A DNA stretch of 51,921 bases from Thermoanaerobaculia bacterium (GTDB lineage: Bacteria > Acidobacteriota > Thermoanaerobaculia > Multivoradales > UBA5704), in assembly GCA_035462575.1 (NCBI GenBank), contig DATHUD010000178.1, positions 1 through 51,921 on the forward strand. The letters are read 5' to 3'. The position numbers were made by a program, and so were the translations under genes. The notes under the pieces are model-generated. The model did not search any database. It saw only the letters and a program-made list of their open reading frames with translations, and was not told the origin of the DNA. Shown here in pieces: positions 2,910-48,279 of this stretch; position 1 is the first letter of the stretch, and each line of letters opens with the position of its first letter.

Positions 2910-2995
2910 GAAATCCGGGTCCTTTCGCAAGCAGACATCTTACATCGCGCGCTTCCCGGCCGAAAGGCGCGGAAGTCCTTGACGGGCTTCATTTC

Positions 2996-3023
2996 TGTGA
3001 CAACTCCGAGGCGGAGCTGTCAC
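2996..3023 (-). promoter_or_regulatory. Candidate Pho-box half-sites upstream of phoU
   Basis: The minus strand reads GTGACA-N16-GTCACA. The hexamer starts are 22 bp (2 x 11) apart and lie 87-114 nt upstream of the phoU ATG. Confidence 0.25.
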
Positions 3024-3036
3024 GGGGGCGGTGTCT

Positions 3037-3690
3037 TCACGCGGTGGGCTGAAGGAGCCGGCCCTCCATCGCGTCGCGCACCCCTTCGCCCAGCTCCTTC
3101 CAGACCTTGTTCTCCCGCTTTTTGAGGCGCTGGTAGGCGCGGGCGATGTCCAAGATGAGGATGATCCGGGCGCTCGCGCAGGCGAGCTCGCCGTGGCGGT
3201 GGGTGCCGATCCGCTCGAAGCCCAGCACCTGGGTGTGGAAGCGCAGCGGCGAGTGGGGGTCGTTCTCGAACACGTCGGTGAGGAAGTGGGTGTAGCCGCG
3301 CCCCACGACCTCGACGATCGCGGCCCGCATGAGCTTCATGACCACCCGGATGTTCCGGCGGTAGCGCGGCACGATCATGAAGCGGCCGATGTCCACGAAC
3401 CGGCCGCCGCGCTTCAAGCCTTCGAGGTCCACCTCGGGCTCCAGGGTGACGCCGTACTCGGCGGGCATCTCCAGGGAAGGATCGTAGACCAGGCGGATCA
3501 CCCCCGCGGGCTCGTCGCCTGCCGACACCAGGAACCAGGACTGGTCCTGCCGGGAGGCGATGTCCGCGGGGATCTCCGCGCCGGAGCTTGAGATCCACTG
3601 CTTCTCGTCGCGATAGACGGCCTCGATGACCGCGAGGGCCCGTTCGCGGTCCTCGGGCGTGAGGATCTTCTGCGCCGTGACGTTTTTCAT
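3037..3690 (-). CDS. GNAT/Acetyltransf_5-like N-acyl amino acid synthase (OlsB/GlsB-like N-acyltransferase)
   Basis: 217 aa, MKNVTAQKILTPEDRERALAVIEAVYRDEKQWI...GVIRLVYD...GRFMIVPRYRRN... It resembles the autoinducer-synthase-like fold of N-acyl amino acid synthases. The ATG at 3688-3690 overlaps the upstream acyltransferase stop by 4 nt. Confidence 0.6.
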   Translation of the reverse strand: MKNVTAQKILTPEDRERALAVIEAVYRDEKQWISSSGAEIPADIASRQDQSWFLVSAGDEPAGVIRLVYDPSLEMPAEYGVTLEPEVDLEGLKRGGRFVDIGRFMIVPRYRRNIRVVMKLMRAAIVEVVGRGYTHFLTDVFENDPHSPLRFHTQVLGFERIGTHRHGELACASARIILILDIARAYQRLKKRENKVWKELGEGVRDAMEGRLLQPTA

Positions 3691-20057: not shown

Positions 20058-21632
20058 TTACGCCGCCACCAGGGCTTCGGTCCGCAACTGCCTCAAATAT
20101 TCGACCTGCGAGGGGAGCGTTGCGACCATCCGCTGGGTCTTCTCGCGCAGGGCCTGGAAGGCGGCGAGCGCGTTGGTGTCGTCCAGGTGATCGAGGGCCG
20201 GCAGGCTTCTCTGCGGGTGGTAGTTGAGCCCGAGCAGCATCACGGAGTACGAGTAGGACTCGAAGCCGTGATAGGTCGGATTGATGTTCTTGGCGTTCGG
20301 CAGGCGGTGCTTCCAGATCTCCAACCGCTCCTTCAAATCCGGCGAGATCGCGAGATCCTTGACCGCCCGCCAGAATTCCGTGTCGGTCCGCTCGGTCGTG
20401 CAGTAGTGGAGGATGAGGAAGTCGCGGACGCCGTCGATGCCTTCCGCGATCAGACGGTTGTAGCTCCGGACCATCTCCTGGTCGATGGCGTCGCCGGGGA
20501 GATGGCTGACCAGCTCCTCGATCCCGTGCTGGATGAAGAAGATGCCCGTCGATTCGAGAGGCTCGACGAAGCCGCTCGACAGGCCGATCGCGACACAGTT
20601 CTTCACCCACGAGTTGCGGCACCGGCCGATCCGCATCTTGATGTGGTTGGCCCGCAGCGACTCCGCGGCAGGCCCGAGGTGGCGGCGGAACTCGCGCTCC
20701 GCCTCGTCCTTCGAAAGGAACGCGCTCGAATAGACGTATCCCGTCCCGGTCCGTCCATAGAGAGGGATGTCCCAGACCCAGCCGGCGCTCAAGGCGGTGG
20801 CGGTCGTGTACGGGTTGATGCCCTCGGCCGCGATGTCCTTCGGGATCTGCATCGCGATCGCGCTGTCGCAGAGGAGCGAATCGGAGAACGGGATGAACGG
20901 CTCGCCGAGCGCCTGGTTGATCAGCAGGCCGCGGAAGCCGGTACAGTCGACGAACAGGTCGCCCCGGATGGGCCCGTGCGCCGCGGTGACGACGTGATCG
21001 ATGGCGCCGTCCTCCCGGAGCTTGACCTCGTTGACCTCGTCGACGACCTGGCGGACGCCGCGCGCCATCGCGTAGCCCTTTAAGTACTCGGCGAGGAGGC
21101 TGGCGTCGAACTGGTAGGCATAGGGGTACTGCACCTTATGGTCTGAAAGGAAGCTGTTCTTGGGCTTGCCGCCGCCGCCGAAGAAGTCCTGGACCTGCTC
21201 GTCGAAGACCCGGCCGTCGTAGAACCGGGGCGAGCGCTTCGCTTCGCAGAGAGCCGGGATGCTGAAGCAGGCCTGGTCGAAAGCCTCCTCGTGCCGCTTG
21301 AGCTTGAGCCACCACTCGCCCATGTTGTAGCCGTCGACCGTCTCGTACCGCTGGAACGGGTGGTAGAAGTGGGCGCCGTCGTTGCGCCAGTTGGCGAATT
21401 TGATGGCGAGCTTGTAGGTGGCGTTGCAGCCCGGCATCCAGTCCTGCTCTTCGAGCCCGAGGAAGTCGAAGAAGAGCTTGATGGTGCTGAAGGTCGCCTC
21501 TCCGACGCCGACCGTCTTGATGGTGGCCGACTCGACGAGGGTTACATTGACGCTGGGAGCTGCCTTCTTGAGATAGGAAGCGGTCATCCAACCCGCCGAG
21601 CCACCGCCCACGATAACGACACTCTTGGCCAT
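20058..21632 (-). CDS. Flavin-dependent tryptophan halogenase (PrnA/RebH-type, free-substrate class); regiochemistry not predictable
   Basis: 524 aa from MAKSVVIVGGGSAGWMTASYL (GxGxxG). It carries GVGEAT, the catalytic-Lys region ATYKLAIKFANW, the WxWxIP motif GWVWDIPL and the catalytic Glu region SGFVEPLESTGIFF. The ATG at 21630-21632 has a GGAGGG SD. Confidence 0.85.
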   Translation of the reverse strand: MAKSVVIVGGGSAGWMTASYLKKAAPSVNVTLVESATIKTVGVGEATFSTIKLFFDFLGLEEQDWMPGCNATYKLAIKFANWRNDGAHFYHPFQRYETVDGYNMGEWWLKLKRHEEAFDQACFSIPALCEAKRSPRFYDGRVFDEQVQDFFGGGGKPKNSFLSDHKVQYPYAYQFDASLLAEYLKGYAMARGVRQVVDEVNEVKLREDGAIDHVVTAAHGPIRGDLFVDCTGFRGLLINQALGEPFIPFSDSLLCDSAIAMQIPKDIAAEGINPYTTATALSAGWVWDIPLYGRTGTGYVYSSAFLSKDEAEREFRRHLGPAAESLRANHIKMRIGRCRNSWVKNCVAIGLSSGFVEPLESTGIFFIQHGIEELVSHLPGDAIDQEMVRSYNRLIAEGIDGVRDFLILHYCTTERTDTEFWRAVKDLAISPDLKERLEIWKHRLPNAKNINPTYHGFESYSYSVMLLGLNYHPQRSLPALDHLDDTNALAAFQALREKTQRMVATLPSQVEYLRQLRTEALVAA

Positions 21633-21644
21633 GTCAAAGCCCTC

Positions 21645-21703
21645 CCCCAAAGACAAAAAGGAATAGATGAGAGGAAGGCCCGCCCGGGAGGACCGGCTTC
21701 CTC
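21645..21703 (-). terminator. Terminator/attenuator-like hairpin between the monooxygenase and halogenase genes
   Basis: The 7-bp outer stem is GAGGAAG (21671-21677) / CTTCCTC (21697-21703) with a GC-rich interior. On the minus strand it is followed by TCATCTATTCCTTTTTGTCTTTG. Confidence 0.35.
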
Positions 21704-21764
21704 CCTCACCGAAGTGGTGAGATTCAGTCTCTGAGTGCTTGAGGCCCGCCAAAGCGGGACAAGC

Positions 21765-23234
21765 TCAAGATTTCGCCACCGGCTCGCTCACGCCGACTCC
21801 GGCAGGCTCTTCGGTCGCCTCGAGCTCGGGGAGGGGGACGGCGACCACCGTGGGGGCCGCCTTGCGCCCCTGGGCGAGGCGGGCGGCGCGGCGGTTGGCG
21901 AGGGCGGTCTTGATCCGGACCTGGAGGGAGACGGCCCCGAGCACGAGGTCCAGCCCCAGCCAGCGGGCGATCCGCTCCTGGCGGCGGTGGCGCTCCACGC
22001 ACTCGGCGTAGGGAAGGGTGCTGTGGGAGACCATGGTGTAGAGCGGCACGGAGTGCTGGCGGAAGAGGCGGTTCAGGAAGATCGAGGTGGTCTTCCGGGC
22101 GGTCACGAGGGGCCGCCGCACGGTGTCGCGCAGCTCGTCGAAATTGTCGATCGAGAGCTGGGCGAGGATGTCCGTGTTGGGCTTCCGGAGCGCCTGGAAC
22201 TCGCGGAACAGGGCGGTCCAGTTGCTCTCGCCGTAGCGGTCGAGCAGGCGGTTCAACGTGGAGGCGTCCTCGAAGGCGGCGTTCATGCCCTGGCCGTAGA
22301 AGGGGACGACCGAGTGGGCGGCGTCGCCGATCAGGAGAACTTTGTCTTTGTAGTGCCAGAGCGAGGTGCGGACGGTGATGAACTCGGAGATGGGGCGGGT
22401 CTTGAACTCCTCGACGGCGTTCGGCATGTAGGGCAGGACGTCTCCGAAGTGGGTCTCGAAGAGGTCCAGGATGTCGCGGTCGGTCTTCATGGCGTCGAAG
22501 CTGTGCCGGCCTTCGAAGGGGAGCACGCAGACGCCGCAGAGGGAGCCGTCGAAGTTGGGCAGGGCGAAGAGCAGGTGGTCGCCGCACGGCCAGATGTGGA
22601 GGGCGTGGTGGTCCATGGGGGGCAGGCCGGGGGCGTCGGCGCGGATGGTGATCTCCTTGTAGCCCCAGGGGAGGTAGTCCTGCCGGTAGTCGGCCCGCTC
22701 GCGGCGCTGCAGGAGCTGGCGGACGATCGAGTAGGCGCCGTCCGCGCCCACGACCAGGTCGGAGGTGAAGCGGGTCTCCTCGCCGGTCCGGGTGTTGTGG
22801 AACATGGCGGTCGCGGTCTCCTTGTCGAGGCCCACGCAGCGCTGGTTGAAGTGGAAGTGGGCGTTCGGCTCCTTCTCGACGGCGTTCAGGAGAACGGCGT
22901 TCAGGTCGTTGCGCGAGAAGGAGTGGATGACCTCCTGGTCGTTCTTGCCGTAGGGCTGGTAGACGACCGTGCCCTTGCCCGAGTGGACGGCGCGGCCGCG
23001 CAGGGGGACGGTGATGGTCGACTGGACCTCCTCTTCGAGGCCGAGCTCGCGCAGGGCGGCCAGGCCCCTTTCGGCGAGGGTGAGCTTGATCGACCGGCCG
23101 ACCTCGACGGGCTCACGGCGCAGGTCGCCGCGCAGCTCGAAGAGGTGGACCTCGTAGCCGCGGCGGGCGAGGTAGATGCCGAGGATCGAGCCGCCGAGGC
23201 CGGCTCCGACGATGGTGATTTTGGGGACTGCCAT
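21765..23234 (-). CDS. kmo: FAD-dependent kynurenine 3-monooxygenase-like aromatic hydroxylase
   Basis: 489 aa starting ITIVGAGLGGSILGIYLARRGYEVHLFE. It carries GRSIKLTLAERG, VVGADGAYSIVRQ, ALHIWPCGDHLLFALPNFDGS, LIGDAAHSVVPFYGQGMNAAFED and RKPNTDILAQLSIDNF. From memory it is collinear with bacterial KMO. The ATG is at 23232-23234. Confidence 0.75.
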   Translation of the reverse strand: MAVPKITIVGAGLGGSILGIYLARRGYEVHLFELRGDLRREPVEVGRSIKLTLAERGLAALRELGLEEEVQSTITVPLRGRAVHSGKGTVVYQPYGKNDQEVIHSFSRNDLNAVLLNAVEKEPNAHFHFNQRCVGLDKETATAMFHNTRTGEETRFTSDLVVGADGAYSIVRQLLQRRERADYRQDYLPWGYKEITIRADAPGLPPMDHHALHIWPCGDHLLFALPNFDGSLCGVCVLPFEGRHSFDAMKTDRDILDLFETHFGDVLPYMPNAVEEFKTRPISEFITVRTSLWHYKDKVLLIGDAAHSVVPFYGQGMNAAFEDASTLNRLLDRYGESNWTALFREFQALRKPNTDILAQLSIDNFDELRDTVRRPLVTARKTTSIFLNRLFRQHSVPLYTMVSHSTLPYAECVERHRRQERIARWLGLDLVLGAVSLQVRIKTALANRRAARLAQGRKAAPTVVAVPLPELEATEEPAGVGVSEPVAKS

Positions 23235-23283
23235 GGTCGTGCTCCGAGTAAGTCGAGTCTCCGGGCTTCAGGCGTTCTGAAGC

Positions 23284-26200
23284 TCACGTTCTTGCCGATG
23301 TGACCGCGAGACCGGGAGGGGCGGCGGATCGCTCGGCCAGCTCTTTGAGCAAGGCGAGCCTCTCGAGCCCCGCGAGGGCCGTTTCCACGTCGATGCCGAA
23401 ATCGATCAGACAGGCCACCTCGTCGACGCCGATCTCCTCCAGGTGCCGCACCATCTCTATACAGGTGCCGGGTGTTCCGAAAAGCGCGCTGTCGCGGACG
23501 TAGCGCTCGACCGCGTAGGCGAGCACCTGCTCCTTGTCCTCCTCGGTGATCGTCCGGATCTCCCCGGGGCGCTGGCGGCTTCGGGCGAGGTTTTCGAGGA
23601 GCCCGCCGAAGGAGCGGAGGTAGTGGGTGAAGGGGGCCCGCACCGTTTCGAGCACGGCGTCCGGGTCGTCGCCCACGAAGGTGTGGAGCATCAGTGTCAC
23701 GCGGCCGGTCCCGGGGTCGTGGCCGGCGGCGGCCCGGGCTTCGCGGTACTGCCGGATCTTGGCGGCCACCCCTTCGAGGCTCTGCCCGAGAAGGTTCACG
23801 AGGAGGTTGGCGCCGATCTCTCCGGCCCGGAGCACGGTGTTCGAGGTGGCGGCCGCGGTGATCCAGACCGGAAGCTCGGGCTGGACGGGCCGGGGGTAGA
23901 GCCGGACCCGGACCTCCTGCCCCACGCCGCCCGGCGCGGCCACGGCCTCGCCCCGCCAGAGGCGGCGGATGGTGTCGATCCCCTGGAACATGACCTCCCG
24001 GCGGTCTTCGTAGTGGCCGGGGAAGAACACGAAGTCGTCGGCGTGCCAGCCCGAGGCGAAGGCGATGCCGGCACGGCCCCGGGAGTAGTTGTCGACCAGG
24101 GCCCAGTCCTCGGCCACCCGGACCGGGTGGTGGAGGGGGAGGACGCCGCTCCCGGCGCGCAGGTGGACGCGTTCGGTGACCATCGCGAGCGCGGCGCCGG
24201 CCACCGCGGGATTGGGGAAGAGGCCGCCGAAGGGGTGGAAGTGGCGCTCGGGGGTCCAGACGGCCTCGAAGCCGTGCCGGTCGGCGAATTTCGCTCCTTC
24301 GAACAGCAGCCGCCAGCGGTCGCCCCGCCCGCTCTCCTCGCTCGCGAAGTAGAAGAGGCTGAAGGAGATCGGCCGCCGCCTGGCGGGTTGCGGCCGGGCC
24401 GGCGGCGCCTCCGGCTCCGGCGCCGGCGCGGCCTCCTCCATCTCCTGGCCGAGAAGCTCCCGGGCGTCCTCGTCCGACATTTCGTCGAGCTCGGCCAGCA
24501 GGCGGGCCATTTCGTCGTCCTCGACCCGGTTCCCCTGGGCTTCGAGGATGGCGCGCGCCATCCCCGCGATCGTGGGGTTGGCGAACAGGCGCTCCAGGGG
24601 CAGCTCGACGTCGAACGCCTGGCGGACGCGGGAGATCAGGAGGATCGCCTTCAGCGAGTTGCCGCCGTGGGCGAAGAAATGGTCTTCGACTCCGACCTTC
24701 TCGACCTCCAGCACCTCGGCGAAGATCGAGGCGAGCGTCTCCTCGGCGGGCATGCGGGGGGCCACGTAGGAGGGCTCGCGCCGCTCCTCGGGCGGCAGGG
24801 CGCCGGGCGCGGGCAGGGCCCGGCGGTCCACCTTGCCGTTTCCCGTGAGCGGCAGCCCGGGGAGGAAGACGAAGACCGAAGGCACCATGTAGGCGGGGAG
24901 CTTTTCGCGCAGGAACCCCTGGAGGGCGGGGGCGTCGACCGTCTCGCCGGGAGCGGGCACCACCCAGGCTGCGAGGCTCCGGTCCCCGCGCTCGCCCGGG
25001 GCGTCGACCACCGCGGCGCGCACGGCCGGGTGCTGCGCCAGGGCCGCCTCGATCTCGCCGAGCTCGATCCGATAGCCCTGGACTTTCACCTGGAAGTCCT
25101 CGCGCCCGAGGAATTCGAGGGTGCCGTCCGGGAGGAACCGCCCGAGGTCGCCGGTCCTGTAGAGGCGCTCGCCGGTCCGGGGGTGGACGAGAAAGCCGGC
25201 CGCCGTTTTTTCCGGGTCGCGCCAGTAGCCCCGGGCGAGGCCGGTCCCGCCGATGTGGAGCTGCCCGGGAACCCAGTCCGGGCGGGGAGCGAGCGCCTCG
25301 TCCAGCACGTGGAAGGTCTGGTTCGCCATCGGCCGGCCGTAGGGGATGCTCTTCCAGTCCGGATCGACCCGGTCGATGGGGAAGAGGATCGACCAGATGG
25401 ACGCCTCGGTGGCACCGCCCAGGCTGATTATTTCGATGGCGGGCGCAAGCGCCCGGAGCCGCCCCGGCAGATCGACGGGAATCCAGTCGCCGGAGAGGAG
25501 GGCGAGCCGCAGCGACGGCGGCATCGGCTCGGAGCGCCCTTCGAGGTCGTGGACGAGCATCTCCATCAACGCGGGGACCGTGTTCCAGAGGGTCACCCCG
25601 TGCACGCGCAGGTAGCCCGCCCAGCGCGCCGGCTCGCGGAGAGCCGCGGGCTCCGGAAAGACGATCGCGCCGCCGGCCGCCAGGAGGCCGAAGAGGTCGT
25701 AGACCGAGAGGTCGAAGCTGAGGGCGGACAGGGCGAGGACGCGGTCGTCCGGCCCCACGCGGAAGCGTCCGTTCACGTCCGCCACGGTGTTCAGGGCGGC
25801 GCGGTGGTCGATCATCACGCCCTTGGGGAGGCCCGTCGAGCCGGAGGTGAAGATCACGTAGGCCAGGTCGTCCGGGGTCTGGACGGCTTCGAGCGGCGCC
25901 TCCGGGAGGGGCGCGTCGTCGTCCGCCACGGGGAGGACCCGGACCTCGGCCGGCCACGCGAGGGCGTCCACGAACCGGGGTTGGGTCAGGGCGAGCCCGA
26001 CCTCCCCGTGCTCCAGCAGATAGCGGAGGCGCTCCGGGGGGAGCGCGGGATCGACCGGCAGGTAGGCCGCGCCCGAGAGGAGGACGCCCAGCACGGCGAC
26101 CACCTGCTCCCAGCCCTTTTCCATCACCACCGCGACCAGGGTGTTGGGCCGGGCGTCCTCTTCGCGCAGGCTCCGCCCCAGGCGGTCGGCCCGCGCGAGA

Positions 26201-29200
26201 AGCTCGCCGTAGGTGAGGGTCCGGCCCGGGGCGATCACGGCGGCGCGCTCCGGGTGCCGGGCCGCCTGGGCGAGAAACGGCTCGTGGAGGAGGCCCCGGG
26301 GAACCGGCGCGGCCGTGGCGTTGACCTCCTCGCGCCGGGCGAGCTGGGCGGCCGGGATCGATGCCGTGACCGGTCCCGTCCAGACGTCCGGGTCGGCCAG
26401 CCGCTCGAGGAGCTCCCGGTAGGCGGCGAACAGGCCGTCCAGCATCCCGGCGGGGAAGAGGGCCTGGACGGCGTCCCAGTTGAAGACGAGGGCGCCGCCC
26501 CGCTCGCTCACCTGGTGGTCCAGGAGCACCTGCGGGGTCTGGGAGATGGCATAGACCGGCTCCACGGGCAGCGCCGGGGCGGGGGGGCCCTCGCGCGCGG
26601 CTTCGAGGCCGAGCGTGCTGGTGAAGACGACCGGCGAGGCCGGCCGGGCGAGCGCGCCCTGCGAGCGCGCCGTCTCGCGCAGCACCTCGACGCCGCTCAC
26701 GTGGCGGTGGTCGAGATCGCTCCAGAGCTGCCGTTGGACCGCCTGCGCCCGCCGCTCGAAGCTCTCCCCGGGCGAGCGCTCGACCTCCAGGAGGATCGTG
26801 GAGGTGAAGTCCCCCACGAGCTTCTCGACGTCCGGGTGGAGGGGGAGCCGGTTGAACAGGGTGAGCACGATCGTGAAGCGGGACGTCTTGCTCCAGGTCC
26901 CCAGCACCTCGGAGAAGGCGGCGAGCAGCAGGCCCGACGGGGTGACGCCGGAGCAGAGGGCCCGCTCTTTGAGGCGCGACCACGCTGGAGGTTCGAGCCG
27001 CGCGCTGCGGCGGACGAAGGTCTGCTCGCGGAGCGCTCCGAGACTCTGGGCGAGCGGGAGCTCCGGGCCCGGCGGGAGGGTTTCCAGGCGCCTCTGCCAG
27101 TACTCCCGGGAGCGGCGGAAGGTCTCGGTGTCGCGCCGGGCGATCCCGGCGAGCACGTAGTCGCGGAAGGACAGCTCCAGCGGATCGCCGAGCGGGGCGT
27201 CCGGCTCCGCGTAGGCTTTGAGCAGCTCCCGGGTGAGGAGGCCGAAGCTCCAGGCGTCGGCGATCAGGTAATCGAAGCTGAAAAAGAGGCGGACGCGGCC
27301 CCCCGGCAGAAGGCCGGCGCGGATCTCGAAGAGCGGCCAGCGGTCGATCGCGAGGCTCTGGTGCGACATCCGCTCGCGGCGCTCGGCGAGCCGCGCGGAG
27401 ACCGCCTCGGGCGACTCCCGCCGGAGATCCTCCACCTCGATCCGGTAGGGCGGCACCTCGGGCAGGACCTTCTGCCGCCCGTCGGGGAGGAAGACGGCGC
27501 GCAACATGTCGTGCCGGTCGATCAGCCGCTGCCAGGCCCGCTCCAGCCGCGCGAGGTCGAGCCCCTCGCCTTCGAGCTCGACGTAGCGGTGCGAGGTCAC
27601 GTGGCCGAGCTCCAGCTCGCCCGTGCGCCCCACCCAATAAGCCTGCTGGATGTCGGTCAACGGGAACGGCAGGTGGCGGTCCGCCGGGACGGGCCGCAGG
27701 GGCTCGAAGGAAGCCGCGCCGCCGCTCTCCCGGCTTTCGAGGAGGACGGCCAGATCGGCGACCGTGGGCGCCTCGAAGAGCGAGCGCAGGCCGATCTCCC
27801 GGCCGAGCGCCTCCTCGATGCGGAAGACGAGCCGGGTCGCCAGAAGCGAGTGGCCGCCCAGCGCGAAGAAGTCGTCGTGCACCCCCACCGTCTCGCGGCC
27901 GAGCACCTCGCGCCAGAGGGCGGCCAGCGCCTCTTCGAGCGGTGTCCGCGGCGCGACGGCCGTGGTCTCCGGGGATTCGGCCGGCTCGGGCAGAGCGCGG
28001 CGGTCCACCTTGCCGTTGGGGGTGAGCGGCAGGCGTTCCAGGATCACGAAGGCGGACGGCACCATGGGCTGGGGGAGCCTCTCGCGGATGCCTTCCCGCA
28101 GCGCGGCGGCGGTGACCTCGCGGCCGGGGACCACGTAGGCGACCAGCCGCTCCTCTCGGGCCACGACGACCGCTTCGCGAACGCCGGGCAACGAGGCGAG
28201 GACCGCCTCGATCTCCCCGGGCTCGATCCGGTAGCCCCGGATCTTCACCTGGAGGTCGGCGCGGCCGTGGAAGTCCACCTCGCCGTTCGGGAGATAGCGG
28301 CCGAGGTCGCCCGTCCCGTAGAGGTCCGCGACGAACCGCTCCCGCGTCAGCTCCGGGTCGTTCAGATAGCCGGCGGCGAGATACGGCGTGCGGATCGCGA
28401 TCTCGCCCAGCTCGCCCACGCCGGCCAGCTCTCCTGCCGGATTGCGCACGAGGAGCTGGACCCCGTCGATCCCCCGGCCGAGCGGGATTCTCTCCCGCTC
28501 GGGCTCCTGGACGACGTGATACCCCATGCCCTGGGGCGTTTCGGTCGCGCCGTAGTAGGAGACGACGGTACACCCGGGAGCCAGGCGCCGCAGCCGCTCG
28601 AGGCTCCGCCGGGTCAGCACGTCGCCGCCGAAGAAGGCGTAGCGGAGCGCCGGAAGCTCCTCGCCGCGCGTCTCCGTGAGGATCTCGCTCATCGCGGGCG
28701 TCAGGTGGGCAACCGTGATTTCTTCCCCGCGCATCCAGCGGGCGAGGCGGCCCGCCGCCAAAGCTTCGGGGTCGGGGATGCAGAGGGTGGCTCCGGCCGT
28801 GAGCGGCGTCAGGAGATCGCGCAGCAGCGGATCGTGGGCGAGCCCCGAGAGCAGGCTGAACCGGTCGGATTCGCCGAGGCCGAACCGCTCGCGGTGCCAC
28901 GCCAGGAAGTGCGAGAGCGGGCGGTGCGGGCCCGCGACCGCCTTGGGCGTGCCGGTCGAGCCCGAGGTGAAGGCCACGTAGGCGAGGTCGTCCGGCCCGG
29001 TGACGACGTCGGGAGCGGGCAGATCCGGCAGGGCTGCCGGCAGATCGAGCCGCGGGCAGCCTTCCAGAGATTCCGGCAAGGAGCCGGCCGCCTCCATCCG
29101 CAGCAGGGCTTTCGGTGCGGCAATCCGGAAGATCTCGGCGAGCCGCGCGGCCGGGTAGGCGGAGTCGAGGATCGTGAAGGCCGCGCCCGCCCGGAGCGTG

Positions 29201-32200
29201 CCGAGCACGGCCAGGGCGAGCGGAGCGCTCCGATGGGCGTAGATCGCGACCCGGTCTCCTTTCCGGACACCCTGCGCCGCGAGCCAGCCGGCGAGCCGGC
29301 GGCTCTCTACATCCAGCTCCCCGTAGGTCCAGGCTCCGGAGACCGCCGTCCGCTCCGGATGCCGTCGCGCCCGCTCGGCAAACATTTCGTGCGCGGCGTC
29401 TTCCCAGACCGGCGGCAGCGGGGCTTTGGGATCGGGCAGCAGACCCCGGGCGCGCTCCGTCACGAGCGACAGGCTCCCCACGGGGGCTTCGGGACGCGCG
29501 AGCGCCTGCTCCAGGAAAAGCTCGTACTGCGCGAGCAGCTCCTCCATGCGCGCCGCATCGAACAGGTCGGCGTTGTAGACCAGCTCGATCCGGAGCGTCT
29601 CCCCGGCTTCGGCCACGTAGAAGGTCATGTCGAACTTCGACGGGAGGGCCGGGAGGGCGACCGCCTCCAGGGTGAGCCCCGGCAGGCGCAGCTCGGCCGG
29701 CGGCAGGTTGAGCAGATTGAACATCACCTGGAAAAGCGGCGTGCGGGAGAGGTCGCGCTGCTGTGGCAGCTCGGCGAGCAACGCTTCGAAGGGCACGTCC
29801 TGGTGCGAGAACGCGCCGAGCGTGACCTCGCGCACGCGGGCCACCAGCTCCGCGAAGCCCGGGGAGCCGGAGAGGTCCGTGCGGAGGACGAGGGTGTTCA
29901 GGAAGATCCCGATCAGCCGCTCCGTCTCGACCGTCCGCCGGCCCGCGACGGGCGTCCCCACCAGGACGTCCTCCTGGCCGCTCTGGCGACCGAGGAGCGC
30001 CTTGGCTGCCGCGAGGAGAACCATGAAGAGGGTGGCCCCCCGCTCCCGGGCAAAGGCGCGCAGCCTTCCGGTCGCCGTGGAAGTGAGGACAAGCTCGCGA
30101 TGCCCGCCGCGGAAGGTCTGGACGGCCGGGCGCGGCCGGTCGGCCGGCAGCTCCAGGGGGGCGATCTCGCCTTCCAGCCGTTCGCGCCACCAGGCGAGGT
30201 CCGCCTCGCGGGTCTCCTCGACCGCCTCGCGCTGCCAGACCGCGAAGTCGGCGTACTGGACCGGCAGCTCCGGCAGGGGGGACGGCCGGCCCTGGGAGAA
30301 GGCGTCGTAGAGCGCGGCGATCTCGCGGACGAAGACCCCGACCGACCAGCCGTCGCAGACGACGTGGTGGAAGACGGCGAGGAAGCGGTGGCGGTCCGGC
30401 CCGAGCCGCAGCAGGAGCGCGTCGATCAGGGGACCGCGCGCGAGGTCGAAGCTCCGGCGGGCGTGCTCCGCGGCGATCCGCCCGGCCTCCTCCTCGGGGA
30501 CGTCGATCACGGGCAGGGGGATCTCGAGCGCCGGAAGGATCTTCTGGCGGGGCGCGCCGTCGACCGTGGGGAAGATTGTCCGCAGCGATTCATGCCGGCG
30601 CACCACCTCGGCCAGGGAAGCAGCGAGAGCGTCCCCGCGGAGAGCCCCGCGGATCTCGACCACGCCGGGCATGTTGTAGGTGGGAGCGCCCGGCTCCAGC
30701 CGGTCCAGCACCCAGAGCCGCTCCTGCGAAAACGAGAGGGGGAGGGTCGCGCCCGGCGGGTGCGGGAGCCGAGGGATGGCGAGGCCCGGGCCTCCGCCCC
30801 CCACCTCCGCGGCCAGGGCCTCGACGGTCGTGGCCTCGAACAGCTTGCGCAGCGGCAGGCTCACACCGAAGGCCGCGCGGACCCGGGCGGCGACACGGGT
30901 GGCGAGCAGCGAGTGGCCACCCAGGGCGAAGAAGTCGTCGCGGGCCCCCACCCTCGCGATCCCGAGGACCTCTTCGAAGATCCCGGCGAGAAGCTCCTCG
31001 GCCGGCGTGCGCGGCGCGACGAAGCCGTCCTCCGCGGACACGGCCGGCTCCAGGAGGGCCAGGGCCTTGCGGTCGATCTTGCCGTTGGGCGTCCGGGGCA
31101 GCTCCGGGAGGCTCACCCAGTCGAGGGGCACCATGGCCTCGGGGAGCGTCTCGCGGAGAAACGCGCGCAGAGCGGCGGGTTCGGCCACCCCGGCGACATA
31201 GGCCGCGAGGCGCGCGCCCTCCCGGACGAGGACGACCGCCTGGTCCACGCCGGGATGCCGGGCGAGGGTGGCCTCGATCTCCCCCAGCTCGATCCGCACG
31301 CCGCGGATCTTGACCAGGTGGTCGATGCGGCCGAGAAATTCGAGCCCGTCCGGCCGCCACCGCCCGAGGTCGCCTGTACGGTACAGCCTTGCTCCAGGGA
31401 TGTCCGCAAACGGATCGGGGCCGCAGCGCTCCGCGGTCTCCGCCGGCCGCTCGAAGTAGCCCCGGCCCACCGGCACGCCGCCGATGCAGATCTCGCCGGG
31501 CACTCCCAGGGGAGAGAGCCCGAGGTTGCGGTCGAGCACGAGGAGGCGGGTGTTGTGGATCGCAGAACCGAGCCGGAGGGGCTGCTCCGGCTTCAAGCGA
31601 CGAGCTGTCACATCGATCGTCGCTTCGGTGGGACCGTAGAGATCGACCAGCTCGGCATCCATCGCGCGGAAGAAGCGGTCTCGGACGTCAGCCGTCAGCG
31701 CTTCTCCGCCCAGGAAGACGCGGCGCAGGCCGCGGCAATCTCCCAGCCCTTCGTCGAGGAGATCCCCCAGCATGGAGGGGACCGACTGGAGGATCGTGAT
31801 CCTCTGTGCATGGGCGGCGCGGACGAGCGCCGCGGGATCCCGGTGCTCTCCCGGTCGGGCCATCACCACGGTGCCCCCGACCATCAGGGGCGACCAGAAT
31901 TCCCAGATCGAGGCGTCGAATCCGAAGGGGGCCCTCTGGAGCAACCGGTCGCTGGGCCTGAAGGGAAACGCTTCCTGCAGCCAGAGGAGGTTGTTGACGA
32001 GGGAGCGATGCTCGATCATCACCCCCTTGGGCCTTCCCGTCGAGCCGGAGGTGAAGAGGAGATAGGCCAGGGCGTTGTCCGGAACCGGGAGGTGCAGGGG
32101 CTCCCCGCTCCCCGAGGAGGAGAGCTCCGCGATCCGTTCCCGGTCGAGGACCACCGTGGGCCGGGCGTCCTCGATCATCGCCGCCACGCGCTCGGCCGGG

Positions 32201-33932
32201 TAGTCCGGATCGAGGGGGAGGTAGGCGCCGCCGGCTTTGAGCACGCCGAGAAGGCCGACGACCATCTCGGCCGAGCGCTCGACGGAGAGACCCACCCGGG
32301 CGTCGGGGCCCACCCCCATCGCCGCCAAGTGACGAGCGAGGCGGTTGGACCGCTCCTCGAGATCCTGGTAGGTGAGCGTGACCTCGTCTGCGACGACCGC
32401 CGGAGCCTTGGGAGTGCGGGTCACCTGGGCCTCCACCAGCTCGTGGACCAGGAGTCCCTCCGGCCGGGGGACCCGAGTCCCTTCGGCGATGAGCTGCCGG
32501 CGCTGCGCCGCAGAGAGGATCGCGAGCTCCCCGATCCGCCGCTCCGGCACTTCGAGGACCGCCGCGATCAGCGCTTCGTGATGCGAGAGCAACCGCTCGG
32601 CGGTCGCCTCCTCGAAGAGGTCGGCGCTCCATTCGAGCATGCCCAGGAAGCGCCCGTCCTCTTCGCTCCAGAGGAGGCTCAGGTCGAGCTTGGCCACCCC
32701 GGACTCGACCGGGAGCGGCGTGAGCCGGACACCGCCCATCCGCATCTCCGGCCAGGGCTGGTTCTGGAGGGCGCAGAGGACCTGGAAGAGCGGGTTCCGG
32801 TCCGTGGACCGCTCGACCTCCAGGTGCTCGACCAGCTTCTCGAAGGGGAGCTCGTCGTGGGCATAGGCGGCGAGCGTCGTCTCCCGGACGCGCCCCAGGA
32901 GCTCGCGGAAGCCGGGATCGCCCGAGAGGTCGGTGCGCAGCACCAGCGTGTTGACGAAGAACCCGACCAGCCCCTCGACCTCGCTCCGGCCGCGGTTGGC
33001 GACCGGAGAGCCGGCCGCGAGGTCGGTCTGGCCGGAATAGCGAGAGAGCAGAGTCTGACAGAGCGCGAGAAGCACCATGAACGGCGTGGCCCCGTGGGCC
33101 CGGCCGAGCTCGCGCAAGCGCTCGGAAGCTCCGGACGAGAGGGCCTGCCGCAGATGCCCGCCACGGTGGCTCGGGACGGGCGGGCGTGGCCGGTCGGTGG
33201 GGAGCTCCAGGGGTTCCAGCCCGGTGAGCCGGCCGCGCCACCAGGCGAGCTCCGCGTCGAGCTTCTCGCCGCTCAGGCGCTCGCGCTGCCAGAGCGCGAA
33301 GTCCGCGTACTGGATCGGCGGCTCGGGCAGCGGCGACGGCCGGTCCTCCCGGAACGCCTCGTAGAGGGCCGTCATCTCCCGGATCAGCACGGTCATGGAC
33401 CAGCCGTCCGAGACGATGTGGTGCATCGTCACGAGGAGAACGTGGTCCTCCGCGGACAGGCGCAGGAGCGCCAGGCGGAGCAGCGGGCCGCGGACGAGGT
33501 CGAACGGCCGCCGCGCCTCCTCGGCCGCGAGGCGCTCCCCCTCGGCGGGATCCGGGACGTCGGCGAGAGGCAGGGCGACCCGGTCCGGAGGCGGAGCGAC
33601 GGCCTGGAGAGGGCGGCCGTCCTCGGCCACGAACGTGGTGCGCAGCGACTCGTGCCGGCGGACGAGCTCCGTCCAGGTGCGCGAGAGCGCCCTGACGTCG
33701 AGAGGGCCCGTGAGGCGGAGGGCGGCCGGGACGTTGTAGGGGGACGTGCCCTCCCCGAGCTGGTCCAGGAACCAGAGCCGTTCCTGGGAGAAGGAGAGCG
33801 GCAGGGGGCCCGCGCTCGCGGCCCGGGGGCGGATCGGCTCGTCGCCGGCCGCCCGGTCCTTCTCCTTGAGCTTCGCGGCGAGCGCGCGGAGCCGGTCGGC
33901 GGAGAGCGCGGCGACCCGCTTCGAAGCTTCGG

Positions 33933-33936
<4 letters not shown>
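23284..33936 (-). CDS. NRPS 2: C-A(Gln)-T-C-A(Lys2-type, substrate unknown)-T-Cy-A(Cys)-T-LLM (luciferase-like monooxygenase); no TE or R
   Basis: 3550 aa.
- Module 1: C1 has MHHIVSDGWS. A1 is aa ~500-955 (nt ~31072-32439) with code DAWQFGLIDK. T1 is GGHS(1009)L.
- Module 2: C2 has FHHVVCDGWS. A2 is aa ~1520-1990 (nt ~27967-29379) and carries SGLAHDPLLRD in place of FDxS, with code DPRHFGYQGK. T2 Ser is 2030.
- Module 3: Cy is aa 2091-~2520 (nt ~26376-27666) with FPLTDIQQAYWVGR, the DxxxxD motif FDYLIAD at 27256-27273, and QTPQVLLDHQ. A3 is aa ~2574-3044 (nt ~24800-26217) with code DLYNLSLIWK. T3 is GGNS(3094)L.
- LLM is aa 3190-3550 (nt 23287-24369), starting ISFSLFYFASEE. Confidence 0.9.
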
Positions 33937-48230
<14,294 letters not shown>

Positions 48231-48279
48231 CAGGGAACAAAGACTAGACGAACCGGAGCCGGATTTGTTTGGTTCTAGG

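Follow-up and report, generated by a model that had tools for sequence, protein, structure and literature searches.

Luciferase-like monooxygenases (LLMs) of the TIGR04020 type serve several described assembly lines. PuwE of the puwainaphycin pathway (crystal structure 6KET) and the microginin-type aminotransferase-oxygenase (AmT-Ox) enzymes contain LLM domains of one subfamily that are built into the assembly line and are assigned alpha-hydroxylation of a carrier-bound acyl chain, and in PuwE the oxygenase (Ox) domain explains the 2-hydroxy acyl group of the product (PMC4219810). MupA of the mupirocin pathway, the namesake of TIGR04020, and its counterpart OocM act on the alpha carbon of carrier-bound thioesters; MupA hydroxylates only thioesters bound to an acyl carrier protein (ACP) and requires an external flavin reductase (PMC10952193) that is not encoded in the cluster. 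In MtaG and MelG, which form the terminal amides of myxothiazol and melithiazol, an oxygenase (MOX) domain is placed in the last module of a condensation-adenylation-MOX-adenylation-thiolation-thioesterase order (C-A-MOX-A-T-TE), and alpha-hydroxylation triggers C-N cleavage (PMC11411415). The C-LLM didomain of MxgE, from the myxoglucamide pathway, performs an alpha-oxidation that was shown genetically and is abolished by residue mutations (PMC13638107). Here we describe an LLM domain of this family at the very end of NRPS2, one of two large nonribosomal peptide synthetases (NRPSs) encoded on contig DATHUD010000178.1 of a Thermoanaerobaculia bacterium (assembly GCA_035462575.1); the window that we analyzed is the entire contig of 51,921 bp, with a G+C content of about 70%.

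The domain order of NRPS2 is C-A-T-C-A-T-Cy-A-T-linker-LLM, where Cy is a heterocyclization domain (Pfam and hidden Markov models [HMMs] built here), and with its T-LLM end it adds a new architecture to an oxygenase family that is already known. The PuwE domain sits in midline, flanked by an aminotransferase and a C domain, and its substrate is a beta-amino fatty acyl chain, whereas the NRPS2 LLM ends its protein and follows a Cy-A(Cys)-T module; MupA and OocM differ again in being free-standing and in serving a polyketide synthase (PKS) bimodule with beta-keto intermediates. MtaG, like NRPS2, has its oxygenase in the last module, but there it splits the A domain, C-A(N)-MOx-A(C)-T-TE, with glycine as the substrate, while in NRPS2 the LLM lies outside the A domain, the residue is a Cy-cyclized cysteine and there is no TE. 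With a complete A domain, a T domain ahead of the LLM, no glycine and no TE, NRPS2 is ruled out as a member of the MtaG type. In position, the Ox domains of EpoB, BlmIII and MtaC/D come close, as flavin domains after or within Cy-A-T that work on a T-bound thiazoline, and they are likely functional analogues of the NRPS2 LLM. Ox domains of the EpoB and BlmIII type have a nitroreductase-like fold. They are FMN-dependent oxidases (PMC10127204) outside the LLM family, unrelated in fold, which dehydrogenate their substrate instead of inserting oxygen; no Ox domain of this kind was found in NRPS2, where Pfam recovered only Condensation, AMP-binding, PP-binding and Bac_luciferase. The reading that we prefer, and to which we give an even chance of being correct, is that a working FMNH2-dependent LLM, born of a gene fusion, tailors the thiazoline held on the neighboring carrier, with release either supplied from outside the two-gene island or following from the oxidation itself.

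A first-pass annotation, made from the sequence without database searches, had noted the last T domain (GGNSL, with the phosphopantetheine site Ser3094 at window positions 24655-24657), an acidic stretch after it and a final 361-aa luciferase-like domain (beginning ISFSLFYFASEE), and all of these are present in the open reading frame (ORF) at 23284-33936. Its family assignment was also borne out, as TIGR04020 (NCBIfam, the MupA/Atu3671 family) matched the LLM with 494.9 bits against a cutoff of 244.45, covering model positions 1 to 340 of 341, and Pfam Bac_luciferase matched residues 3199 to 3506 with 180.5 bits. An end-to-end alignment to the PuwE oxygenase crystal 6KET scored 397 bits, a match that fixes the predicted fold of the domain; we found no literature citing 6KET. 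Among 91 columns that are conserved in at least 93% of 257 LLM domains, 86 are retained, and the deviations at near-invariant columns are Y3208W, V3264G, E3277D, F3368V and T3380V. Both histidines of the ERHFH motif (H3232 and H3234) and F3197 are kept, and by their spacing F3197 and H3234 would be the counterparts of MxgE residues needed for alpha-oxidation. Relative to a 96%-identical copy, the LLM has a ratio of nonsynonymous to synonymous substitution rates (dN/dS) of 0.18 and Cy-A-T one of 0.235 (range, 0.18 to 0.24 across Cy-A-T, linker and LLM), and the island appears to be under purifying selection. The degenerate domain lacking key residues that the annotation had allowed for is thus not what the alignment indicates; the LLM is, on this evidence, intact.

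The Cy-A-T-LLM end recurs with an identical stop codon in three further assemblies at 96.4 to 99.7% identity, so that it is no assembly artifact: misassembly or truncation is ruled out by the same junction and stop codon in four independent assemblies, and truncation is also opposed by the short gap of 49 nt from the NRPS2 stop to the next gene. In one of these assemblies (GCA_035458145.1, locus L007), the gene downstream of the fused NRPS end is the same as in the window.

The module in front of the LLM has a complete Cy domain. This domain has DYLIADAWS at residue 2222 in place of HHxxxDG, and the cyclodehydration motifs PVVFTS and SQTPQVLLD, together with FPLTDIQQAYWVGR, all occur in the NRPS2 translation. 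The last A domain is uninterrupted (core at residues 2556 to 2905, C-terminal subdomain at 2961 to 3035), with the T domain and then the LLM after it. Because the Cy domain is complete and the A domain carries a Cys code, the end product bound to Ser3094 should be a lipo-hexapeptidyl-thiazoline thioester, and the annotation was right to place the LLM behind the final T domain of a module that forms a thiazoline.

Comparison with relatives reveals where this arrangement came from. About 200 of some 260 homologous LLM domains are embedded in an A domain, the layout of MtaG. The closest relatives of the NRPS2 LLM, at 56 to 65% identity, are P0122, P0275, P0276, P0124, P0128 and P0156; P0122 is its sister (support of 0.987, FastTree; second node, 0.848), and the clade consists of free-standing LLM proteins. 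These proteins of 800 to 1,000 aa open with a short basic helix, continue with a C domain that lacks HHxxxDG, and end just past the A8 region of an A core that has no A3 and A8 motifs and holds the LLM as an insert; in the closest subclade A7 is degenerate as well (FRSGQ or FHTGQ). At every locus with readable DNA, the gene upstream of the free-standing LLM protein ends with Cy-A(Cys)-T, an acidic helix and a stop codon. NRPS2 residues 1064 to 3162 are collinear with the upstream subunits of loci L010 (53% identity) and L011 (50%), and the tail of L009 is 68% identical; in alignment A2 the stop codons of L009, L010 and L011 fall exactly at the end of the acidic helix, where NRPS2 runs on into AAPAPEPEAPPARPQPARRRP. 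This Pro/Ala-rich junction takes the place of the relatives' stop, start, basic helix, dead C domain and the N-terminal part of the dead A domain, and NRPS2 ends about 25 aa past the LLM barrel, with no C/A scaffold and no separate polypeptide. Since the relatives' subunits stop at the acidic helix and the next gene encodes the sister LLM, comparison shows the T-LLM end to be the product of a gene fusion, in which a trans-acting oxygenase that serves Cy-A(Cys)-T modules specifically was joined to the carrier and lost its scaffold. P0122-type proteins would act in trans, docked on the upstream carrier, while in NRPS2 the scaffold is gone and the LLM is covalently attached to the carrier. We group the free-standing dead-C/dead-A/LLM proteins with the C-LLM didomain of MxgE. 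That the fused LLM began as a partner acting in trans on Cy-A(Cys)-T modules is recognized here for the first time.

The acidic and basic helices are likely docking elements, and the acidic helix kept in NRPS2 would be either a relic or a retained docking helix. TubC_N (PF18563) gave no match at an E value of up to 1 in six partner N termini, which rules out the basic helices as TubC_N docking domains; because of this, the docking role is read from position and conservation only.

At four related loci the line runs on past the LLM step. At L011/L012 an NRPS with a basic helix and a C start is the gene directly after the free LLM protein; on the P0124 contig a C-A-T module is encoded directly after it; at L093 a 6,574-aa NRPS follows, which opens with a basic helix that leads into a C domain; and at L010 the LLM protein is followed by a pyridoxal phosphate (PLP) enzyme, a stand-alone C domain, TauD and another C-starting gene. 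At two loci with readable DNA the downstream NRPS starts with a basic helix of the pattern L(S/T/P)PE(K/Q)R.LL..(R/K)L. We also surveyed T-LLM ends across 80 loci from species-representative genomes, a set that does not include the contig of the window (best match, 61% identical). Subunits ending in T-LLM occurred at 9 of the 80 loci, and in 6 of these 9 a C-starting gene came directly next. Because the line continues past the LLM at four related loci and T-LLM ends mostly precede C-starting genes, domains of this type would, as far as gene order can tell, by default tailor the chain in line and keep the thioester, in agreement with the experimentally characterized members MupA, PuwE and MxgE.

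Several other placements were seen alongside these. One subunit, P0089, has a T-LLM end followed by C-A-MT-T-TE (MT, methyltransferase), but it was ruled out as an analogue of Cy-A-T-LLM as its last module is an ordinary C-A-T without Cy or Cys. Loci L013-L092 include FAAL-T-LLM and PKS-T-LLM subunit ends and C-LLM didomains (L061), and their LLM placements span Acidobacteriota, Chloroflexota, Cyanobacteria and Myxococcota; at L035, FAAL-T-LLM is followed by a T-TE gene. GCA_035458145.1, a sister metagenome-assembled genome, carries the fused island at 96% identity (L007) and, on another contig, a free dead-scaffold LLM protein (L093:1-12539, DATIAH010001076.1) that is translationally coupled to the 6,574-aa basic-helix NRPS.

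No function that could release the chain was found within the contig, as the first-pass annotation had also concluded. Pfam searches that covered NRPS1, NRPS2 and every other ORF with high G+C at third codon positions recovered no TE, reductase (R), terminal C domain or alpha/beta-hydrolase, and a six-frame scan of the contig with a TE profile built here gave no match at an E value of up to 10. The 51.9-kb contig thus encodes none of the canonical NRPS terminators (TE, R or terminal C). We read the LLM as a tailoring domain that is neither a homologue of TE nor a proven substitute for it.

These comparisons change how the locus is to be interpreted. The proposal that the line ends in T-LLM instead of a TE does not hold in terms of homology; what has been fused on is a tailoring protein that normally stands alone and acts in trans. 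The acidic helical linker is present as described, yet it proves to be more than a linker, namely the former C-terminal tail of the subunit (alignment A2), and the analogy drawn to MtaG/MelG does not extend to architecture (the LLM lies outside the A domain, Cys takes the place of Gly, and a TE is lacking). The alternative suggestion of an unusual thiazoline modification fits the comparative data, with this LLM lineage always paired with Cy-A(Cys)-T. The first-pass interpretation is thus supported in part: the thiazoline is likely to be modified, and oxidative release, though possible, lacks support.

In the chemistry that we propose, the LLM would act on the acyl chain held by the neighboring carrier, that is, on the lipo-hexapeptidyl-thiazoline thioester delivered by the last Cy-A(Cys)-T module. 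By analogy to studied family members, it would hydroxylate the carbon alpha to the thioester, which here is C4 of the thiazoline, to give a 4-hydroxythiazoline; loss of water to a thiazole-4-carbonyl thioester would be the simplest outcome, and the LLM could in this way do the work of the EpoB and BlmIII Ox domains, to which it is unrelated. Release would then have to come from outside the two-gene island, for instance from a hydrolase acting in trans or a further subunit, or follow from the oxidation. Homology to PuwE and MupA and the covalent fusion to a T domain are only suggestive of LLM-type alpha-hydroxylation of a carrier-bound thioester in this system.

Several observations weigh against this proposal. 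At L009 and L094, the loci of two of the closest free-standing relatives (P0122 and P0275), the line ends at the LLM protein with no TE nearby; DUF533/TerB and AIM24 genes come next at L009, and an amidase-like gene and then an ABC exporter at L094. A two-gene island that appears to be kept by purifying selection has no release function of its own. We found no literature link between LLM ("luciferase-like") domains and thiazolines or heterocyclization. The substitutions Y3208W, F3368V and T3380V lie at positions that are 94 to 99% conserved in the family and are fixed in all four relatives; no other of the 257 LLM domains carries Trp3208, Val3368 or Val3380 (in the closest free-standing relatives these residues are Gln, Phe and Thr), and these lineage-specific changes may have altered the activity of the LLM. 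Positions 3368 and 3380, which by the LuxA structure and an alignment to luciferase-alpha-like chains would fall near the flavin-phosphate loop and on strand beta-6, are presumably near the active site. V3264G (window 24145-24147) is private to the window copy at a position that is 95% conserved as Val and adjoins the conserved GS of strand beta-3; the three relatives at 96.4 to 99.7% identity keep Val3264, and Gly3264 may be either a private variant that does mild damage or an error in sequencing.

Part of this evidence would be explained if the LLM off-loaded the chain oxidatively. The alpha-hydroxylated Cys/thiazoline unit would open, and C-N or C-S cleavage would free a lipo-hexapeptide carboxamide or thioacid; the cysteine would be sacrificial, a labile 2-oxoacyl remnant would be hydrolyzed from the carrier, and no TE would be needed for product release. 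There is precedent in MtaG/MelG, where alpha-hydroxylation triggers release (PMC11411415), and in the photoxenobactins, for which alpha-hydroxylation of a Cy-installed cysteinyl unit with spontaneous C-N cleavage was proposed and 15N labeling traced the terminal amide N to Cys (PMC9396620). An apparently selected island of two genes without a TE, lines at L009 and L094 that likewise end at the LLM protein (at L094 with the amidase-like gene and exporter beyond), and lineage-specific substitutions that hint at an altered function all agree with such a role. The same kind of LLM nevertheless precedes further modules at four related loci, where an intact thioester is needed; the Cy domain keeps every cyclodehydration motif, so that a ring would be built only to be discarded; the remnant in MtaG is cleared by a retained TE, for which there is no counterpart here; and the photoxenobactin mechanism is itself only a proposal. 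We regard oxidative off-loading as unlikely, if far from negligible, and give the same tentative standing to the broader idea that the window and the P0122/P0275 subclade share a TE-independent termination in which alpha-oxygenation of the Cys unit by the LLM triggers off-loading as a carboxamide, a thioacid or a decarboxylative thiazole. A more direct involvement, in which the LLM itself cleaves the thioester, through Baeyer-Villiger-like attack of a flavin peroxide (decarboxylative release of a 4-unsubstituted thiazole) or through LLM-promoted hydrolysis, appears to us extremely improbable. The luciferase fold does support peroxide attack on carbonyls. MupA quickly hydrolyzed its substrate on a noncognate ACP (PMC10952193), and C-terminal thiazoles formed by oxidative decarboxylation are known, but they are made by an unrelated diiron enzyme after TE release (PMC10127204); the LLM family offers no precedent for thioester cleavage, and the in-line relatives require a preserved thioester.

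The end of NRPS2 might also not be the end of the pathway. A partner encoded elsewhere (a C-starting NRPS, a stand-alone C domain or a hydrolase) would then take over the chain in trans, recruited by the acidic helix, which has stayed intact between T and LLM although docking of the LLM no longer needs it. The downstream partners in relatives all start with a basic helix that matches the pattern given above, and GCA_035458145.1 has both the fused island and a separate free LLM protein with its helix-bearing 6,574-aa NRPS. Against this stand the P0276 cluster being a singleton (no copy of that LLM protein at 90% identity or more is on record from other assemblies), the rarity of hand-over between clusters and the chance that the acidic helix is a mere relic, and we consider an unfinished line quite unlikely. 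If instead the cluster were decaying or truncated, the island would be the remnant of a longer pathway that has lost its downstream modules, with the LLM as a relic; the presence/absence polymorphism of the island, the extension of related pathways past the LLM and the private V3264G would fit, but the range of dN/dS values across Cy-A-T, linker and LLM, a reading frame and stop codon identical in four assemblies and the retention of nearly all conserved columns argue against decay, which we hold to be very improbable. The tailoring of a carrier-bound thiazoline by a functional, fusion-derived LLM remains the interpretation that we favor.

The association described here is a new pairing, in which the MupA/PuwE-type LLM lineage is tied to thiazoline-forming modules either in trans with a dead C/A scaffold or fused to the carrier, and it predicts a second route, by oxygen insertion, to thiazoles or 4-oxygenated thiazolines, or else oxidative off-loading. 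Were the off-loading reading true, the two-gene island would be self-sufficient for release and the LLM would be the missing oxygenase type for the "cleavage off-loading" that was proposed for the photoxenobactins. The related proteins also form a series in domain evolution, from dead C plus dead A plus LLM through a reduced C domain and then an A domain only to the T-LLM fusion that keeps the tail helix; this is a worked example of how trans tailoring enzymes turn into integrated domains and suggests a minimal design for engineering. As a compact 25-kb TE-less unit of two genes, the island is a small system in which to ask about release without a dedicated terminator.

Relatives without the NRPS genes help to delimit this unit (coordinates of all features are given in Table 1). 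At L004 (1300-1360) the DUF5916 stop lies 26 nt from the start of the FAD-monooxygenase gene with no NRPS between, and the flanks are conserved (DUF5916 at 86% identity and the FAD monooxygenase at at least 90%, with the halogenase and its neighborhood in the same order). L002 (440-1055) has a 600-nt repeat-rich spacer at the island site, whose match to the window is confined to its final ~45 nt, and lacks the halogenase. A deletion scar at L002 was considered and rejected, as blastn and blastx found no NRPS remnant in the spacer. By these comparisons the NRPS gene pair forms an island that is present or absent between the DUF5916 and FAD-monooxygenase genes, a difference that would go back to insertion or clean loss. 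Downstream of the NRPS genes, an FAD_binding_3 monooxygenase and a Trp halogenase are encoded at window positions 20058-23234, and the minus strand of the spacer that separates NRPS2 from the FAD-monooxygenase gene showed no terminator. The NRPS-free relatives have the monooxygenase at both L004 and L002 and the halogenase at L004 only, and because these genes are present in relatives without the NRPSs, they cannot be counted as dedicated parts of the pathway. No Trp- or Kyn-like code occurs among the A domains of NRPS1 and NRPS2, and the two genes are probably not dedicated to the NRPS pathway.

Table 1. Positions of the synthetase genes, the terminal domains of NRPS2 and the island boundaries in the window
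Feature	Window positions	Strand	Details
Left island boundary	48231..48279	.	49-nt spacer after DUF5916 gene
NRPS1	33933..48230	-	4765 aa; translation, HMM domain map, Pfam
NRPS2	23284..33936	-	3550 aa; translation, Pfam, HMM domain map
Cy (heterocyclization) domain, last module	26350..27669	-	residues 2090-2529
Cys-type A domain	24832..26271	-	residues 2556-3035; code DLYNLSLIW
Last T domain	24550..24738	-	residues 3067-3129
Acidic helix EDDEMARLLAELDEMSDEDARELLGQEMEE	24433..24522	-	residues 3139-3168; homologous to C-terminal tail of related Cy-A-T subunits
Pro/Ala-rich junction AAPAPEPEAPPARPQPARRRP	24370..24432	-	21-aa linker between acidic helix and LLM
LLM (luciferase-like FMN monooxygenase, TIGR04020 type)	23287..24381	-	residues 3186-3550; stop codon 23284-23286
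Right island boundary	23235..23283	.	49-nt spacer before FAD monooxygenase gene

NRPS1 consists of an acyl-AMP-ligase-like loading domain and a T domain followed by four C-A-T modules (HMMs built here), and Pfam recovered four Condensation domains, six stretches of AMP-binding, five PP-binding domains and a DIP2-like AMP domain. Its stop codon overlaps the start of NRPS2 in an ATGA at 33933-33936, and the two genes are translationally coupled on the minus strand. The N terminus of NRPS2 (window 33834-33936) has a basic helix, KRVAALSADRLRALAAKLKEK, of the same kind as the partners of acidic tails in relatives; the tail of NRPS1 (AGEIALQAGAEVLETT, window 33936-33990) is without the acidic LLxELExLSxEE motif, whose sole instance in the island is the T-LLM linker. 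Along NRPS1 and NRPS2 the A-domain codes read Ala, Val, unknown, Val, Gln, an unusual code and Cys, the last three corresponding to modules 5 to 7 in NRPS2 (DAWQFGLID, Gln-like; DPRHFGYQG, unusual; DLYNLSLIW, Cys). The module 6 A domain (window 28009-29376) combines DPRHFGYQG with YYGATETPQG, and its code is kept in the collinear bimodule of L010 (L010:221-6772; YGATETPQAMG), so that the unusual residue and Cys would form an old conserved pair.

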